A DNA stretch of 57,369 nucleotides from Candidatus Poribacteria bacterium. GTDB lineage: Bacteria > Poribacteria > WGA-4E > WGA-3G. The notes under the pieces were generated by a model. The model worked only from the letters and a program-made list of their open reading frames with translations, did no database searches and was not told where the DNA came from. Shown here piece after piece: positions 3,423 to 33,393 of this stretch. The DNA is taken from NCBI GenBank assembly GCA_022822275.1, contig JAJEBZ010000170.1, positions 1-57,369 on the forward strand, given 5' to 3'. Made by a program: the position numbers and the translations under genes. Position 1 is the stretch's first letter. The number at the start of each line of letters is the position of its first letter.

Positions 3423-4787
3423 TTACGGTTCATGTGTTTTGTTAGTATCCTGTTCATACTCATCCAGTTTGCGGTATAGAGTGCGAACCCCGATATCCAG
3501 AATCTTTGCTGCTTCTGTTTTGTTCCCGCCTGTTTCAGCCAGCGTTTTCTCGATGGCTTCCCGTTCAATCTGGGTCATTGTCATACCAACCTTGCCGATT
3601 GTATCCTCATCATCAATCACTGTAAGATATTCTCCACCTACCTTTTTTGAACCTTGCTGATGTTCATTATGTGTTGTGATGGGGATAACATCGTCTTGTG
3701 TGCGATTTTCAAGTGCCTTTGCAATAGTAGATAACACCTCAAGTGTTTTCCGCAAGACGATTGCCGTATCTTCGTTATCCGTTATCTGCAACCAACTGGT
3801 ATCATCTTCAGGAATTAAGGTTGGTATCTCAGTGTGATAGGTAGTATTCGGTTCAAGCAAACGAACTGCGGAGAGAATGAGCCCCAGAATTGTCTTGTAA
3901 ATGGTGACATTTTCTGCTGCTACTGTTTCGGTATTTTGGTTGATGACCTGTATAGATGTTCCCGGTTCGTCAAGAATTTTCACAGGATATTGAGGATATT
4001 CAGGTACTGGATGCGTGGAAAAATCTGTGAGTTCAAGTTCCTCGGTTGCTGCTAAGATAATAGCGGACTCAACGGCATTTTTGAGTTGACGGACATTGCC
4101 CGGCCAGTCTGCATCTTTGAGATAGTCATGTGCTTTTGGTGTTATACCGGTAACATCTTTGTTGTGTTTTTCGCTTAATTCGGAGATAAATGCATCTACA
4201 AAAAGGGGTATATCTTCGCGTCTGTCACGTAGGGGTGGAATTTGGATTTGGAAAAGGTTCAATCTATAGTAAAGATCTTGCCTAAATTTCTCGTCTTTAA
4301 CCGATTTTTCGAGATCAACGTTTGTTGCAGCGATAATTCGGACATCAACTTTGACGTTTCTCTCACCACCGAGTCGTGTGAATTCTTGTGTTTCTAAGAC
4401 TCGGAGGAATTTGACTTGTACTTCGGGGGACATTTCACCTATTTCATCAAGGAAGAGTGTGCCACCATCAGCAAGTTCAAATACACCGCGGCGTTGGTTT
4501 GTTGCACCGGTAAATGCCCCTTTTTCGTGACCAAAGAGCTCGCTTTGAAGCAGGTCTTGATAAAACACACCACAATTGACAGCTTTGAAAAGTCTATCTT
4601 TGCGGGTACTTTTCTTGTGGATTGTCTGTGCAACGACCTCTTTTCCGACACCTGTTTCACCTGTAATGAGGACAGTTGCATTTGTTGGTGCAACCTGTTT
4701 AACTTTGCGCCAAACTATCCGCATCGCTTCGGATTCACCGATAACGGGGAATGCATTGGACTCGGTAAGGGGTGTTGAGAGGTTCAT
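3423..4787 (-). CDS. Sigma-54-dependent transcriptional activator (AAA + Fis HTH, no N-terminal sensor domain)
   Basis: GETGVGKE, ELFGHEKGAFTGA, LFLDEIGEM, WPGNVRQL and C-terminal GNKTEAAKILDIGVRTLYRKL. Confidence 0.92.
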   Translation of the reverse strand: MNLSTPLTESNAFPVIGESEAMRIVWRKVKQVAPTNATVLITGETGVGKEVVAQTIHKKSTRKDRLFKAVNCGVFYQDLLQSELFGHEKGAFTGATNQRRGVFELADGGTLFLDEIGEMSPEVQVKFLRVLETQEFTRLGGERNVKVDVRIIAATNVDLEKSVKDEKFRQDLYYRLNLFQIQIPPLRDRREDIPLFVDAFISELSEKHNKDVTGITPKAHDYLKDADWPGNVRQLKNAVESAIILAATEELELTDFSTHPVPEYPQYPVKILDEPGTSIQVINQNTETVAAENVTIYKTILGLILSAVRLLEPNTTYHTEIPTLIPEDDTSWLQITDNEDTAIVLRKTLEVLSTIAKALENRTQDDVIPITTHNEHQQGSKKVGGEYLTVIDDEDTIGKVGMTMTQIEREAIEKTLAETGGNKTEAAKILDIGVRTLYRKLDEYEQDTNKTHEP

Positions 4788-4818
4788 TTTTCTTCCTCGC
4801 AAACCAACATATTATTGG

Positions 4819-5565
4819 TTAACTCTTATTTAGAACAATCTCAATTAACCGCTGTGGATTTTGCTTCACTTCCTCAAACACCTGAAAACCATCACGGCAC
4901 GCAGCTTCACACAGTCTTCTGATGACAACACCTTTGAGTGCCCAGTTAGTAGTGCGGAGACCTTTCTGCAGATCCCTGCCAGTTTCAACAACATGGACAT
5001 TCGGTAAATCCTCATTCACTGCTTTTCTTTGGCTTTTTGGGAGGAGAAAAACCATCGTTACAGCACGTTCCACCTCAAAAACGCGTTGTAAGGATTCAAT
5101 ATCATCCTGTCTCAATAGCGAAATAACGAGATCATAACTCTCAAACAGATCGACTGTGCGTTCAGGGACTCCATTCTCACCGAATTCTAACACCTCAAGT
5201 TCGTGAAGGGGGGCAGTGTCAAAAGGCACGATCGTATCATTTTCACCAACCGGAATCATCTTCCCATCAACACGGCAATAATACCATGGAAAATAAAGGT
5301 CAATGGTGTTCTTACCGTATTGTTCGTGTTCACGTATCTGTTTCAGACCTTCCCTCAATTGAATAAACAGAGGTCCGGTAAACATTTCGGCAGCGGGTAG
5401 TCGATAATCCTTATCTTTATCATACCATCCTTCTGCGTTGAAACCGCACAGTTCTTTGATACGCGCCTTAAGACGATCAGGTGCCCTGCAATCTTCACTA
5501 CTCAAAGGATTGTCAAGCTTATGTTTTTGCCCAGTTGTATAAGAGTTAAAGACCAAAACTTTCAT
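4819..5565 (-). CDS. Hypothetical protein (DUF6884-like 'PAAEMFTG' motif)
   Basis: Long ORF between secF and the sigma54 activator. ATG at 5565 avoids overlap with secF. Family assignment is tentative. Confidence 0.6.
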   Translation of the reverse strand: MKVLVFNSYTTGQKHKLDNPLSSEDCRAPDRLKARIKELCGFNAEGWYDKDKDYRLPAAEMFTGPLFIQLREGLKQIREHEQYGKNTIDLYFPWYYCRVDGKMIPVGENDTIVPFDTAPLHELEVLEFGENGVPERTVDLFESYDLVISLLRQDDIESLQRVFEVERAVTMVFLLPKSQRKAVNEDLPNVHVVETGRDLQKGLRTTNWALKGVVIRRLCEAACRDGFQVFEEVKQNPQRLIEIVLNKS

Positions 5566-5569
5566 GATA

Positions 5570-6736
5570 CTACGCCTTTGCTTGCTGTTGTCTTTGATGC
5601 CAGATGTGCAGGATTGGACTTGCGATGAAGACTGAGGAATATGTTCCAATTAACACACCTACAATGAGTGCTAAGGCAAACGTGTTAATCTCCTCTCCTG
5701 AACTGGATAAAGCAAAAATTACAACAACAACAAAGAGCGTTGTAATTGAGGTGATAACGGTTCGGCTGAGCGATTGATTGATGCTGCGGTTTAGGACATC
5801 TGTGTATTCCGTGCCACGTAGAGATATACCGTTTTCTCGGATCCGGTCAAATACGACAATTGTATCGTTTAGCGAATACCCGATAATAGTGAGAAACGCA
5901 GCGACGGTAGGCAAATTGATCTCTTTTGAAAACACAGCGAAAATCCCCAATGTGATTAGCACATCGTGCACAAGTGCTGCAATAGCACCGATGGCATAAC
6001 GGAATTCAAATCGCCAAGAGATGTAGATCAACAAGATTGCGATTGACGAAAGGACTGACCAGAGCGCGGACCATTTAAGGTCGCGCCCAACGCTGGGACC
6101 GACTTCAGTAACATTTACACTGTCGGAGACTGCTTTCCAACCGTCACCGCCTTCAAGGAGTGCTTCTGTGAGAATCCCACCGATGCTTGCTTGTATCTGA
6201 ATAGTTGCATTTGCTGTTAGATCTATCCCGACTTCGTTTGCAAAAGTCACCTGAATCGCAGTACCGTCTTCAGTAGGTGTTACAGTGAGGATTTCATTGC
6301 GTTGTTGTAAATCGCCATCAATCAATTCAACGTTTTCTCCAGGTTTCAACAGATGTGTTTTTTCTGCAGTGCTGCTTACATGTAGGGTTGTAGCCGTTGC
6401 ATCTCCAGGGTCTGCCATAATAGGTATATTAACCGACTGTTGCTGAAATTCTGGGCGATGCCCCATGGAGACAAAAGCTTTGTTTTCGCTCGGGGCGAGT
6501 TGTATTTTGACATCTTCGTAGCCTAATTCAGCTAGTTTAGTTTTCAGTTCATCTTCAGTTACTGTCCTGTCAAAGACAACTTCAACTTTTACACCGCCAC
6601 GGAAGTCGATACCAAAATTCGGTCCGCCATGAAATACAAGAAAAACGATACCGATTGTTATCAACACAGCAGAGAACAAAAATCCGGTACGATGCTTACT
6701 GATAAAATCAATGTTTGTATTTTTTAGAAATTCCAA
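5570..6736 (-). CDS. secF: Protein translocase subunit SecF
   Basis: GIDFRGG, VGPSVG, ALVHDV, GYSLNDTIVVFDRIREN, GTYSSVFIA. Confidence 0.96.
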   Translation of the reverse strand: MEFLKNTNIDFISKHRTGFLFSAVLITIGIVFLVFHGGPNFGIDFRGGVKVEVVFDRTVTEDELKTKLAELGYEDVKIQLAPSENKAFVSMGHRPEFQQQSVNIPIMADPGDATATTLHVSSTAEKTHLLKPGENVELIDGDLQQRNEILTVTPTEDGTAIQVTFANEVGIDLTANATIQIQASIGGILTEALLEGGDGWKAVSDSVNVTEVGPSVGRDLKWSALWSVLSSIAILLIYISWRFEFRYAIGAIAALVHDVLITLGIFAVFSKEINLPTVAAFLTIIGYSLNDTIVVFDRIRENGISLRGTEYTDVLNRSINQSLSRTVITSITTLFVVVVIFALSSSGEEINTFALALIVGVLIGTYSSVFIASPILHIWHQRQQQAKA

Positions 6737-18259: not shown

Positions 18260-18298
18260 ACGCAATTTATAGTAAAAAATATAATTAATGGGGCACTT

Positions 18299-18393
18299 TT
18301 GTAGCACAAACTGTTAGTTTGTGCAGATGCGGACACAAACTAACAGTTTGTGCTACAACACCCCGGTAGGTTCGGTTTCCTAACCGAACCTAA
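18299..18393. repeat. REP-like palindromes downstream of mnmE (possible terminator)
   Basis: TTGTAGCACAAACTGTTAGTTTGTG...CACAAACTAACAGTTTGTGCTACAA, then TAGGTTCGGTT/AACCGAACCTA. Related units at 22173-22229. Confidence 0.7.
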
Positions 18394-18781
18394 CAAATGT
18401 CCAATTAATTCTAAAGTCTACTATAAACACACTTCGTTTGTTATGTTCACATGTATGTTTTCGTTAATGCAACCTTTAATAAGATACGGTGTAATTCAAA
18501 TATATTACCAGATTGTTTTGATTTCAATCTAACGATACGCGTATCGTATTTATCAGGAAACCACACCTACCGTCGGAAAATAGGTGATACACCATAAATT
18601 CGCTATAAGGTACATCACGAAAATAAATTTTGTTCTGGACAGACTTTGTTTTATATGTTATTATGTTATCAACTCTTGAAGCGATATCAATGTTGCGTGG
18701 AATTTCTGCTCAACACCATAATTTAGGTTCATGCCTAATTGATCGCACAAATACGCACAAATAAATATAAGGAGAGAATTA

Positions 18782-19921
18782 ATGATTAATTCTGTTTTTC
18801 ACCGATACGCTCCCTGTCTGGCAGGATTCTGCGTGCTTTTGCTACTGACGGTATCAATACCTGTCCTTGCAGAAGGTGAAGGGGAAGCCAAACAAGACGA
18901 AAGCGAAGTCAAACAAGTCGTATGGGGAATGTCTATTGAGGAAGCAACCAAAATGTCCATTGAAACGGGTAAACCGATTATGATGGACTTCTATACAGAG
19001 TGGTGAGGATGGTGTAAGCGGCTGGACGCCGACACATTCACCGATGAACGTATAGTTGCTATTGCTGAGAAGTTCGTCCCCGTAAAGGTTAACCCTGAGC
19101 TCAAAGAACATCCCGAAAATGCGGAAGCCCAGAAAAAATACGGTGTTAGAGGATTTCCCGCAATCCTATTCATCGCCCCCGATGGTGGTGTTATCAAAAA
19201 CATCTCTGGCTACAAACCACCGGATCAATTCTTACCGGAAATGGAAGATGTTCTGAAAAAAGAGAAGGCATACCAAGAAGTATTAACGAAATTAAAAAAG
19301 ATGCCTGATGATCCGAAACTGAACAGCCAGATTGCTGTTTTCTATGTACAACGAGAACAACTTGATAAAGCGATGCCAATCAGTGAGAAGATGCCTGATG
19401 ATGTTGATCTGAACCGTGCTTTTGGTATACACTATCTTGGCAAAAATCAAATGGAAAAAGCACTCAAAATCAGTGAGAAGATGCCTGATGATATTGAGTT
19501 GAACACGGAATTTGCGTTGACGTACCTGAAAACAGCTAAGATAAAAGAAGCACTCCCGTACAGTGAGAAGGTCATGGCAAAAGACCCTGAAAACGAATCC
19601 GGACTTCTGCCGAAATTGCACACTCAAATCGGCCTCGCTTATGCCATGCAACTTCAACGTAAACCTGGCGATGCAAATCTTGCCAAGAACGCTGAAATGC
19701 ACTTCAAAAAAGTGGTTGACATGTATCCGAAAAGCGACGAATATGAACATGCTCAATACTATCTGGGTGTTACATACATGCTCAATAAGCAATATGATAA
19801 AGCAACAGAAGTACTTGAGAAGTTAGTCAATCACGCTACCAACGAACAGATGAAACTCAGTGCGAATAGTGCTCTGCAACGTCTGAAGCAATTGGCTACA
19901 GAAGGCGAAACCGACAACTAA
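18782..19921 (+). CDS. Exported thioredoxin-fold + TPR selenoprotein (UxxC; Sec at TGA 19004-19006), about 379 aa
   Basis: ORFs 18782-19006 and 19241-19921 share a frame. Read-through gives MMDFYTEW-U-GWCKRLDADTF...KYGVRGFPAILF, then TPR-like repeats. N-terminal signal peptide. Confidence 0.85.
19002..19042 (+). promoter_or_regulatory. Bacterial SECIS-like hairpin
   Basis: GTGT-aag-CGGC-[TGGAC]-GCCG-ACAC hairpin starting 6 nt after the UGA, with G in the apical loop. Outer pairing GGTGA/TCACC. Confidence 0.7.
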
Positions 19922-20664
19922 ACTTTTAAATTAGCAACTTCTGCAGGGGTAAGAAATCGATATTGCCCTTGCGGAAGATTGCCCAACCGCAACATGCCGA
20001 TACGTATCCGTTTCAAACGGGTCACTCGGTGTCCCACCGCCTTAAACATCAGGCGTACCTGTCGTTTTTTTCCTTCGTGTATAATTACCCTATATTTTGC
20101 TACTATTCCATATTTGTTTGCTTTCTTTTTAACAGGTATATTAAGATCGTTTTTCACATCAAGTAGTTTTATGTTAGCAGGTGCTGTTTTCCCGCCTGTT
20201 ATTTCCACGCCGTTGCGTAGACGTTCAAGTGCGCGTTTGCTCAGAACACCATTCACCCATGCAATATACGTCTTATCAATCTCATAACTGGGATGCATCA
20301 ATTGGTAAGCGAAATCGCCATCGTTGGTGAATAGTAAAAGCCCTTCTGTCTCCAAATCTAAACGTCCCACTGGATAGATGGATTTAGGTAGTTCTGTTAG
20401 CAGGTCCATCACGGTTGGTCGTCCACGTTCGTCATGACGGGTTGTTATATAACCTGCTGGCTTATTCAACATGAGATAGATGCGTTCAGTAAGGGGTTCA
20501 ACCTGTCTTCCTTCAAACCGAATGCAATCCTTTTCCACATCAATTGGGTGTCCGGGAATGAGGATTGTTGTGCCGTTAACAGAGGCGTTTCCCTCACGAA
20601 TGGCTCGCTTGATTGCGCGCCGCGATGCGATACCTGCGGAAGCGATATATTTTTCAAGACGCAC
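19918..20664 (-). CDS. RsuA/RluB-family pseudouridine synthase
   Basis: S4 domain MRLEKYIA..GIASRR, NKPAG, PVGRLD, EGKKRQVR. Confidence 0.92.
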   Translation of the reverse strand: MRLEKYIASAGIASRRAIKRAIREGNASVNGTTILIPGHPIDVEKDCIRFEGRQVEPLTERIYLMLNKPAGYITTRHDERGRPTVMDLLTELPKSIYPVGRLDLETEGLLLFTNDGDFAYQLMHPSYEIDKTYIAWVNGVLSKRALERLRNGVEITGGKTAPANIKLLDVKNDLNIPVKKKANKYGIVAKYRVIIHEGKKRQVRLMFKAVGHRVTRLKRIRIGMLRLGNLPQGQYRFLTPAEVANLKV

Positions 20665-33244: not shown

Positions 33245-33393
33245 TCATCATTATTAAAATCTTTATAAACAGGACTTACGCATTCCCTCGCTTGCGGGAG
33301 GGAGGGATAAAGGGGGCGGTCACCACCTGAAAATGACAAAAAATCAAGGATAAAATCCTTGAAAAAACAAAATTCTAAAAAGGAGCAAGCAAT

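Follow-up and report, generated by a model that had tools for sequence, protein, structure and literature searches.

The DNA considered here (the window) is a stretch of 57,369 nucleotides (nt) from a Candidatus Poribacteria bacterium, contig JAJEBZ010000170.1 of assembly GCA_022822275.1. Its forward strand carries a gene made up of a single frame of 379 codons plus TAA (18782-19921), in which the sole internal stop codon is a TGA at 19004-19006. This TGA corresponds to residue 75 of the translation of 18782-19921, in the context DFYTEW-U-GWC-KRLD, and is predicted to encode selenocysteine (Sec, U). We hold with high confidence that the product is a real, exported, Sec-containing protein in which a thioredoxin domain is combined with tetratricopeptide repeats (TPRs). 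A preliminary description of this DNA had proposed that one gene is split in two by the caller of open reading frames (ORFs), that the in-frame TGA falls on the first Cys position of a thioredoxin active site, and that the frame stays open through a cis-Pro motif (YGVRGFP) into the TPR ORF at 19241. All three proposals stand: the TGA is codon 75, and the codon of P126 in the cis-Pro motif lies in the same frame (for coordinates of all features, see Table 1).

Annotation of the gene

Under translation table 11 the 379-residue frame is cut into ORF 18782..19006 (74 amino acids, aa) and ORF 19241..19921 (226 aa), and the protein database entry for the contig is the 226-aa piece only (P0003). This split is a systematic annotation error in public databases. 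Most of the 70 database relatives are fragments from the C-terminal end, 220-315 aa long; names are given to few of them, and these read 'hypothetical protein' or 'TPR repeat protein'.

Table 1. Coordinates of the features described, in window positions unless another contig is named
Feature	Position	Strand	Basis
Complete selenoprotein gene	18782..19921	+	379 codons + TAA, in-frame TGA read as Sec
Shine-Dalgarno-like AAGGAG, 7 nt upstream of ATG 18782	18769..18774	+	read from sequence
Artefactual 'TPR ORF' of gene callers, 226 aa from internal Met	19241..19921	+	P0003
Putative signal peptide, residues 1-30 (MINSVFHRYAPCLAGFCVLLLLTVSIPVLA then EG)	18782..18871	+	conserved n-region, core and end
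Acidic low-complexity linker, residues 31-47	18872..18922	+	length varies among orthologues
Thioredoxin-fold domain, residues 48-165, DsbD-gamma/DsbH-like	18923..19276	+	Pfam, NCBIfam, PDB sequences, VIA
Sec codon UGA, residue U75, first position of U-G-W-C	19004..19006	+	conservation
Resolving Cys78 (TGT), invariant	19013..19015	+	alignment
SECIS element	19012..19035	+	synonymous-site constraint, invariant upper helix and loop, published bSECIS constraints
SECIS lower helix GUGU/ACAC	19012-19015 / 19032-19035	+	
SECIS upper helix CGGC/GCCG	19019-19022 / 19028-19031	+	
SECIS apical loop UGGAC (UGGAU in most relatives)	19023-19027	+	
cis-Pro of thioredoxin fold, P126 in GFP, invariant	19157..19159	+	36-sequence alignment
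TPR region, residues 175-373	19304..19900	+	helical hairpins with pLDDT above 90; TPR_19; VIA
Candidate promoter-like site TGGACA-17-TATTAT, TG before -10 hexamer	18636..18664	+	10/12 matches
Five read-through ORFs elsewhere in the genome	C313:3137-5899 (+); C239:2874-4160 and 4189-4803 (+); C263:7717-8295 (-); C44:11288-11683 (+)		Pfam across TGA

Conservation, distribution and inheritance of the TGA codon

An alignment of homologues had been suggested as a check on the Sec codon, and the result is clear-cut. TGA occupies the U-x-x-C column in 39/39 sites taken from orthologues and paralogues in 40 relatives, in 29/29 loci of a search of genome contigs (including one Fidelibacterota metagenome-assembled genome, MAG, and one unclassified MAG), and in 35/36 loci from a search with a different query, the exception being L169 from a Phycisphaeraceae MAG, which lacks the motif; other homologues carry Cys at this column. 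A strong match containing '1 TGA' was obtained in 38/40 relatives, the best matches in the remaining two (G019 and G033) being weak and without an in-frame stop. The column is conserved down to 35% identity across an order. When 151 Poribacteria genomes were drawn, 138 matched at E <= 1e-25, with 98/99 genomes in family f1, 10/10 in f2, 26/26 in f3 and 3/4 in f4; these families all belong to one order, in which the gene was present in 137/139 other genomes, and none of the 11 genomes drawn from five other families (f5-f9) matched. Among the matches listed (a further 62 lie beyond them), each one that covers residue 75 contains TGA, and that order yielded no Cys version. The orthologue of G049, a member of the same genus (C21:2932637-2933743), has two in-frame TGAs and not one, the second of which could be another Sec codon or a defect. 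TGA forms of the family were also observed outside Poribacteria, in L093 (the Fidelibacterota MAG) and L092, and in the metagenome loci L107-L109, L111 and L125.

The genomic context is likewise retained: mnmE lies upstream in 33/48 loci and a convergent, rluB-type S4/pseudouridine synthase gene downstream in 29/48, a synteny that points to vertical inheritance. Some genomes contain two or three paralogues with the motifs GWC, YWC or GF/YC, two of them adjacent in G015; one copy was found in the present assembly. Related loci are titled Candidatus Poribacteria (sponge symbionts), and the two best DNA matches to the stretch are sponge metagenomes.

A sequencing error, for which TGC or TGT in reads had been named as the sign, is not borne out, since independent DNA contigs carry the TGA. 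Those of run X2 have it unchanged with 2-3 differences elsewhere, and no variant at 19004-19006 was reported in any DNA or RNA-library run. Run X1 holds no near-identical contig over 18983-19063, only a piece from a relative, and such a hole in the contigs proves nothing. A 499-nt contig from the RNA libraries X15 and X16, with about 93% identity, spans 18762-19254 and bridges the unchanged TGA.

These data bear directly on the simplest rival explanation, in which the TGA is a true stop codon, created by sequencing error or pseudogenisation, so that a remnant of 74 aa is followed by a TPR gene of its own with its start at 19241. The split is indeed what gene callers and public databases report, and an ATG is present at 19241. 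However, that internal ATG has no Shine-Dalgarno motif upstream comparable to the one before ATG 18782 (sequence inspected), the same TGA column recurs in all extracted relatives across the order and down to the lowest identities, independent DNA contigs agree, and the thioredoxin fold and its Pfam domain span the TGA, with the invariant Cys78 and cis-Pro126 encoded downstream of it. A true stop is thus hardly credible.

Homologues with Cys at the active site complete the picture. The full-length proteins P0044 and P0058 (38-39% identity) have CDTC, and P0065-P0070 have CGWC, CVWC or CKWC in the same thioredoxin-plus-TPR layout. A search with the Cys form P0065 found 28 metagenome loci, of which 23 carry TGC/TGT and 5 TGA at the column, and a genome scan with the CDTC form P0058 found only TGA-form Poribacteria loci, at no more than 43% identity. 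The alternation of TGA and Cys at one column is the classical pattern of a Sec/Cys pair.

The SECIS element

The preliminary description had pointed to a hairpin 3' of the UGA resembling a selenocysteine insertion sequence (SECIS), and the evidence for this element lies in the frozen synonymous sites at that place and in its agreement with published constraints. Numbered from the U of UGA, C16GGC19 pairs with G25CCG28 around the loop U20-G-G-A-Y24, and the lower helix is G9UGU12 / A29CAC32 in this genus; the hairpin is embedded in codons 78-85. In a codon alignment of 58 distinct coding sequences (CDS), with 29 conserved columns of 4-6-fold degeneracy, codon entropy collapses at residues 78-83 only: C78 is TGT in 54/58, K79 AAG in 44/50, R80 CGG in 57/57, L81 CTG in 58/58, D82 GAT in 54/58 and A83 GCC in 57/58. 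The columns R80, L81 and A83 have at most 0.13 bits each, compared with 0.86-2.17 bits for the remaining 26 conserved columns of 4-6-fold degeneracy; among the latter, for example, R191 uses five codons and L276 six.

Constraints on bacterial SECIS (bSECIS) elements are listed in PMC13188914 as a loop of 3-9 nt, an upper stem of 4-16 bp, a G in the first two loop positions, a spacing of 16-37 nt and a minimum free energy (MFE) of no more than -7.5 kcal/mol. The present element lies within all of them, with a 5-nt loop that has G at positions 2 and 3, a 4-bp upper stem and a 16-nt spacing after the UGA; the energy is -9.0 kcal/mol for the named two-helix structure and the MFE is -13.3 kcal/mol. 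Both stem length and spacing are at the lower limit. The selD genes of relatives have a hairpin of their own, GCUC/GAGC with the loop CGGGU or CGGGG (3/6 selD loci in which the site was found), and its loop, by reading of the folds, also occupies positions 20-24.

The Cys forms provide a contrast at the same residues. The homologous Leu codon in the 23 Cys-form metagenome relatives is CTC, CTG, CTT or TTG, and all five TGA forms among these metagenome loci keep CTGGA, in a sample that is small and made up of related members. The element is a clean natural case of a bacterial SECIS of minimal size (stem of 4 bp, loop of 5 nt, spacing of 16 nt) inside a conserved peptide motif, together with a Cys-form control in which the codons are relaxed. 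In L107-L109 the codons around CUGGAU are AAA/AAA and not CGG/GCC, so the SECIS of those loci must pair differently.

Protein architecture

The encoded protein has the layout signal peptide, acidic linker, DsbD-gamma/DsbH-like thioredoxin domain and TPR array. An AlphaFold2 model built on a 36-row alignment has a predicted local distance difference test score (pLDDT) of 89.7 and a predicted template modelling score (pTM) of 0.78, and its first helix (10-25) leads into disorder at 25-47 (pLDDT below 50 over residues 25-40); the thioredoxin fold occupies 48-147, and after a long helix (147-173) helical hairpins continue up to residue 373.

A signal peptide at the N-terminus had been proposed from the start, and the pattern is conserved in most orthologues, as judged by eye: a basic n-region and the hydrophobic helix 10-25 are followed by an A-x-A-like end, V-L-A then E. 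Both domains are moreover nearest to periplasmic proteins. From its sequence the segment may be a cleaved signal peptide or possibly an uncleaved anchor. The YWC paralogues begin differently under a first-ATG rule. Reading 'LAGFC' as the processing site of a lipoprotein was rejected, as the Cys is not conserved (for example in L021 and L024) and a lipobox would not have F at position -1.

The thioredoxin domain is recognized across the TGA by Pfam, with Thioredoxin_2, Thioredoxin_7 and DsbH matching within residues 44-165; the scores are 58.8 bits for Thioredoxin_2 (PF13098, residues 61-152), 48 bits for Thioredoxin_7 and 41.8 bits for DsbH, and Thioredoxin_2, Thioredoxin_7 and Thioredoxin are above the Pfam cut-offs. 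In the model, strand 66-70 precedes helix 76-85, and U75 and C78 are carried there. Structural comparison with VIA gave Z scores of 16.7 to both 3f9u and DsbH (2ju5) and 16.3 to DsbD-gamma (1vrs), with 14-16.7 for thioredoxins and DsbD-gamma overall, and a search of PDB sequences gave 2kuc. This domain is closest to periplasmic proteins of the reductive branch.

In the TPR region, Pfam TPR_19 matches residues 302-357, and the last three TPRs (residues 240-371) superpose on YbgF (2xev) with Z 15.8 and a root-mean-square deviation (rmsd) of 1.6 Å over 122 residues. A 'TPR docking region' had been proposed, and the name suits these TPRs, which are confidently modelled. Residues from about 172 to 260 contain the motif (I/L)SEKMPDDxxLN in three units of 30 residues; at the DNA level, 23 nt recur exactly at 19380-19402 and 19470-19492, 90 nt apart, and Tandem Repeats Finder reported no array in the TPR region. 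Orthologues vary in how many such units they have: L037 has four, L038 has two, and the shorter ~300-aa proteins of other families lack this type.

Selenocysteine machinery and genetic code

The genome to which the window belongs is a 320-contig assembly that is 96.4% complete. Profile searches of it found selB at 358 bits (cut-off 242) and selA at 618 bits (cut-off 268), and a tRNA-Sec with anticodon UCA (78.5 bits) lies directly beside selB. The genetic code is the standard one, as TGA closes 334 of 1881 open frames of >=300 codons and the anticodon of tRNA-Trp is CCA. A second rival explanation is that the organism, or this gene, uses genetic code 4 or 25, under which TGA means Trp or Gly instead of Sec. 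The database proteins P0002 and P0055 show W at the Sec column, and some caller must therefore have translated TGA as Trp. Against such recoding stand the frames closed by TGA, the CCA anticodon of tRNA-Trp and the fact that anticodon UCA occurs in tRNA-Sec alone; the genome has selA and selB, and the homologues carry Cys at the column, not Trp, which at the position of the nucleophile would kill a thioredoxin active site. The probability of this recoding is practically negligible.

As a whole, the locus is best explained by an exported selenoprotein gene at 18782-19921 that encodes a signal peptide, a linker, a thioredoxin domain with U75-G-W-C78 and a TPR array, and in this explanation we have good confidence. 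Several observations speak against it. The 67-nt fold after the UGA is no more stable than shuffled sequences (z = -0.12), and the reality of the hairpin is for this reason argued from conservation and not from folding energy. Covariation is absent because the upper helix and loop are invariant: RNAalifold retains only three GC pairs, all of them invariant, and its covariation term is 0; in counts over the two-helix structure a single pair showed double changes, which does not exceed what shuffles give. Of the cells of the lower helix, just 72% are paired. A strict scan of the genome for the hairpin geometry after in-frame stops returned four cases for TGA, four for TAA and two for TAG, without enrichment for TGA; the other candidate selenoprotein genes have longer hairpins and other spacings. 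Rfam gave no SECIS match, only sub-threshold C/D-box snoRNA models (best E 0.041) that were taken as chance. At the RNA level the evidence is one contig from a relative, and X15 and X16, equal in size, may represent a single data set; as RNA libraries can contain DNA, this contig lends weak support to one transcript in a close relative. The closest structural counterpart over both domains, YbbN/CnoX (see below), superposes poorly (template modelling score, TM, 0.21-0.27; rmsd 21.7), and the likeness is one of architecture only. Lastly, the preliminary description had implied selA, selB, selC and selD in the genome, and the first two and tRNA-Sec are there over their cut-offs, but selD was not found in this assembly, TIGR00476 reaching only 25.5 bits and NF002098 giving no match.

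We infer from synteny that selD falls in a gap of the assembly. It is present in 40/40 relatives, each time with one TGA, and the 2.9 kb that precede selD in the closest relative match contig C252 at 94%, the homology ending 21 nt before the end of this 4946-nt contig (about 4925-4946), so that C252 would stop at the flank of selD. In that closest relative, selD is bracketed by dispersed repeats of ~45-65 nt (L094 3241-3367 and 6806-6858) that have copies on dozens of contigs.

Comparison with known systems

Thioredoxin-fold selenoproteins of the UxxC type are well known as a class, and the exported thioredoxin-TPR architecture is the new element that now joins them. A predicted selenoprotein family named 'Thiol:disulfide interchange protein' (PF13098 Thioredoxin_2, UxxC) is listed in PMC9312934 and PMC13188914, and such a selenoprotein has been reported in Geobacter and Syntrophus (PMC1794560). 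The present protein is like this family in that PF13098 is its best Pfam domain, Sec comes first in UxxC and the SECIS follows directly 3'; as predicted from its sequence, it fits the combination of PF13098 and UxxC used in these reviews. It is unlike the earlier reports in lineage and habitat, as it occurs in aerobic or micro-oxic sponge symbionts and not in anaerobic Deltaproteobacteria. The main texts of PMC9312934 and PMC13188914 do not contain the terms TPR, tetratricopeptide, Poribacteria or sponge, and their supplements may hold relevant lists of selenoproteins. As for the Sec trait, selA and selB are described as enriched in sponge symbionts (PMC5649159), and Sec is reported in hydrogenases of Poribacteria (PMC13582414). 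The Sec trait of Poribacteria would thus also serve an envelope redox protein in 137/139 genomes of one order, and the protein is a concrete case in which to ask what favours Sec over Cys in an extracytoplasmic setting.

The closest relatives of residues 45-165 in both sequence and structure are DsbD gamma and DsbH, all of them extracytoplasmic. The likeness holds at the level of the domain only: NCBIfam gave 54.7 bits for DsbD (NF001419, cut-off 330), 40.5 for DsbH (NF043050, cut-off 190) and 71.2 for the C-terminal domain of TsoB (cut-off 805), none of which reaches its threshold. DsbD-gamma and DsbH use CxxC, whereas the Poribacteria protein has UxxC, and DsbD-gamma is tethered to a membrane domain, whereas the Poribacteria protein is free-standing, exported and equipped with a TPR tail. 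The thioredoxin-7 selenoproteins of NCBIfam (trx7_PDZ_seleno NF041199; VPGUxxT NF041382 and NF041383; TsoB NF045694) also place Sec on a Thioredoxin_7-type fold, but these models scored 22-71 bits against cut-offs of 275-805 and differ in motif (CxxU, UxxT) and in partner domains (PDZ, rhodanese/DsbD). Nothing in NCBIfam scores above its cut-off, and the thioredoxin-TPR selenoprotein has no model that covers it.

CnoX/YbbN has the same order of parts, an N-terminal thioredoxin fold and then C-terminal TPRs. It is the top Foldseek match over both domains, with 334 aligned columns (E. coli 3qou, E 3.4e-7; also 3qdn), and TPR_20 (PF14561, the CnoX type) matches residues 161-198 at 25.4 bits against a cut-off of 25, no stretch passing alone. 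CnoX is cytoplasmic and works with GroEL/DnaK. A cytoplasmic location is not what was found for the Poribacteria protein, whose signal-peptide-like N-terminus is conserved, as judged by eye; it differs from CnoX further in its domain of DsbD-gamma type and not Trx1 type, its Sec and its YbgF-like TPRs. YbgF/CpoB, which is periplasmic and associated with Tol-Pal, shares the TPR fold superposed above, and TIGR02795 gave 29.1 bits over residues 302-356 (cut-off 90.1); its coiled-coil N-domain is lacking here, and because TPR folds recur widely the likeness says little about a partner.

Proposed function and mechanism

The interpretation first put forward, an extracytoplasmic Sec redox enzyme, is supported at the level of sequence by the conserved UGA, the 3' hairpin, the thioredoxin fold and the export-type N-terminus. 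In the mechanism that we propose, SelB and Sec-tRNA(Sec) would bind the SECIS, leading to insertion of Sec at codon 75, and the protein would be exported by way of its Sec-type signal peptide. The first active-site position is that of the attacking Cys in thioredoxins, and Sec75 is on this ground taken to be the exposed nucleophile; it would attack a disulfide or sulfenic acid of an envelope client to give a selenenylsulfide, an intermediate that Cys78 would resolve. Re-reduction of the resulting Se-S bond could then fall to DsbD, whose three domains (alpha, beta and gamma) are encoded on contig C79, and the TPR array may hold the client or partner, as in the cytoplasmic thioredoxin-TPR protein CnoX/YbbN. 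The probability that the protein acts as a periplasmic thiol-disulfide reductase fed by DsbD is put at an even chance.

The same selenoprotein could instead act as an oxidant, an isomerase or a scavenger of peroxide or sulfenate (DsbA-, DsbC-, DsbG- or peroxidase-like). Sec in UxxC raises reactivity in either direction, the present data do not fix the redox potential, and the occurrence of Sec in three AhpC/TSA proteins of the genome suggests a pressure from oxidative stress. The domain, however, resembles DsbD-gamma and DsbH of the reductive branch, not DsbA, DsbC or DsbG, and DsbD is present in the genome; a role of this kind is therefore considered unlikely.

Alternatively, the protein could serve as an apocytochrome c thioreductase and chaperone, merging in a single chain the roles that the thioredoxin-like CcmG/ResA and the TPR-bearing CcmI/CcmH have in cytochrome c maturation. 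In structure, the thioredoxin domain comes closest to 3f9u (Z 16.7), a C-terminal domain whose parent is annotated as 'putative exported cytochrome c biogenesis-related protein', there is a weak match to ResA (19.9 bits), and the genome contains three Cytochrom_C_asm (cytochrome c assembly) genes; CcmI, moreover, uses TPRs to hold apocytochrome c. Yet 3f9u is itself a DsbD-gamma-type domain, the NCBIfam scan gave no match to the CcmG, CcmI or CcmH models, and the gene lies between mnmE and the pseudouridine synthase gene and not in a ccm/ccs cluster. These points render the cytochrome c role distinctly improbable.

A more far-reaching proposal would make the protein a counterpart of CnoX in the periplasm, the first 'chaperedoxin' that is extracytoplasmic and depends on selenium; its Sec-containing domain of DsbD-gamma type would form transient Se-S bonds with oxidized Cys residues of envelope proteins held by the TPRs. 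We offer this as a speculation that is quite unlikely to be correct in full. If it were true, the envelope of the sponge symbionts would be shielded from oxidants derived from the host or from seawater, and the strict Sec form across the order (137 genomes) would mean that selenium is indispensable for the job.

Flanking sequence and other candidate selenoproteins

The 520-nt gap between mnmE and the selenoprotein gene (18260-18781) is unusually long and contains no ORF of note. The promoter-like site of Table 1 lies in it; the upstream promoter scan found 7 sites where shuffles have 5.1 +/- 2.7, a number within chance. At the other end, the stop codon of the selenoprotein gene (TAA, 19919-19921) overlaps that of the convergent S4/pseudouridine synthase gene (19918-20664, minus strand), so that no intergenic terminator is possible between the two.

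Elsewhere in the genome, a screen of in-frame TGAs by redox motif and coding potential gave 178 candidates, of which 11 were picked by eye for Pfam; in five of these read-through ORFs a Pfam domain spans the TGA, and three of the 11 were unsupported. One of the five is the formate dehydrogenase alpha subunit FdhA (SRAUHAP), three are AhpC/TSA peroxiredoxin-like proteins (GSWUPFC, TGTUTLC and GTWUPNS), two of them in tandem and one fused to CarboxypepD_reg, and the last, a metal-binding HMA protein (GMTUGSC), begins like a lipoprotein. All five have a post-TGA hairpin with G(G/U) in its loop. Further possible selenoproteins, on the evidence of their sequences, are two paralogous proteins of ~520 aa (C306:2281-3819 and 4900-6474, minus strand) and a WD40 propeller protein (C151:26890-28488, minus strand). 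The paralogues, which have no Pfam match, contain a conserved C-U dipeptide (ESCUASG and EACUGSG) and share the hairpin GAGGGC-AG(G/U)U-GUCCUC. The WD40 protein ends in an HMA-like GMTUVAC without Pfam support at the site, and its hairpin is GUGC-AGGAU-GCAC. Lastly, a dispersed repeat of ~110-155 nt, 84-95% identical between copies, occurs on many contigs, including the window (33267-33387) and, in the closest relative, L094 (9314-9468); it may be a miniature inverted-repeat transposable element (MITE)-like or repetitive extragenic palindrome (REP)-like element.

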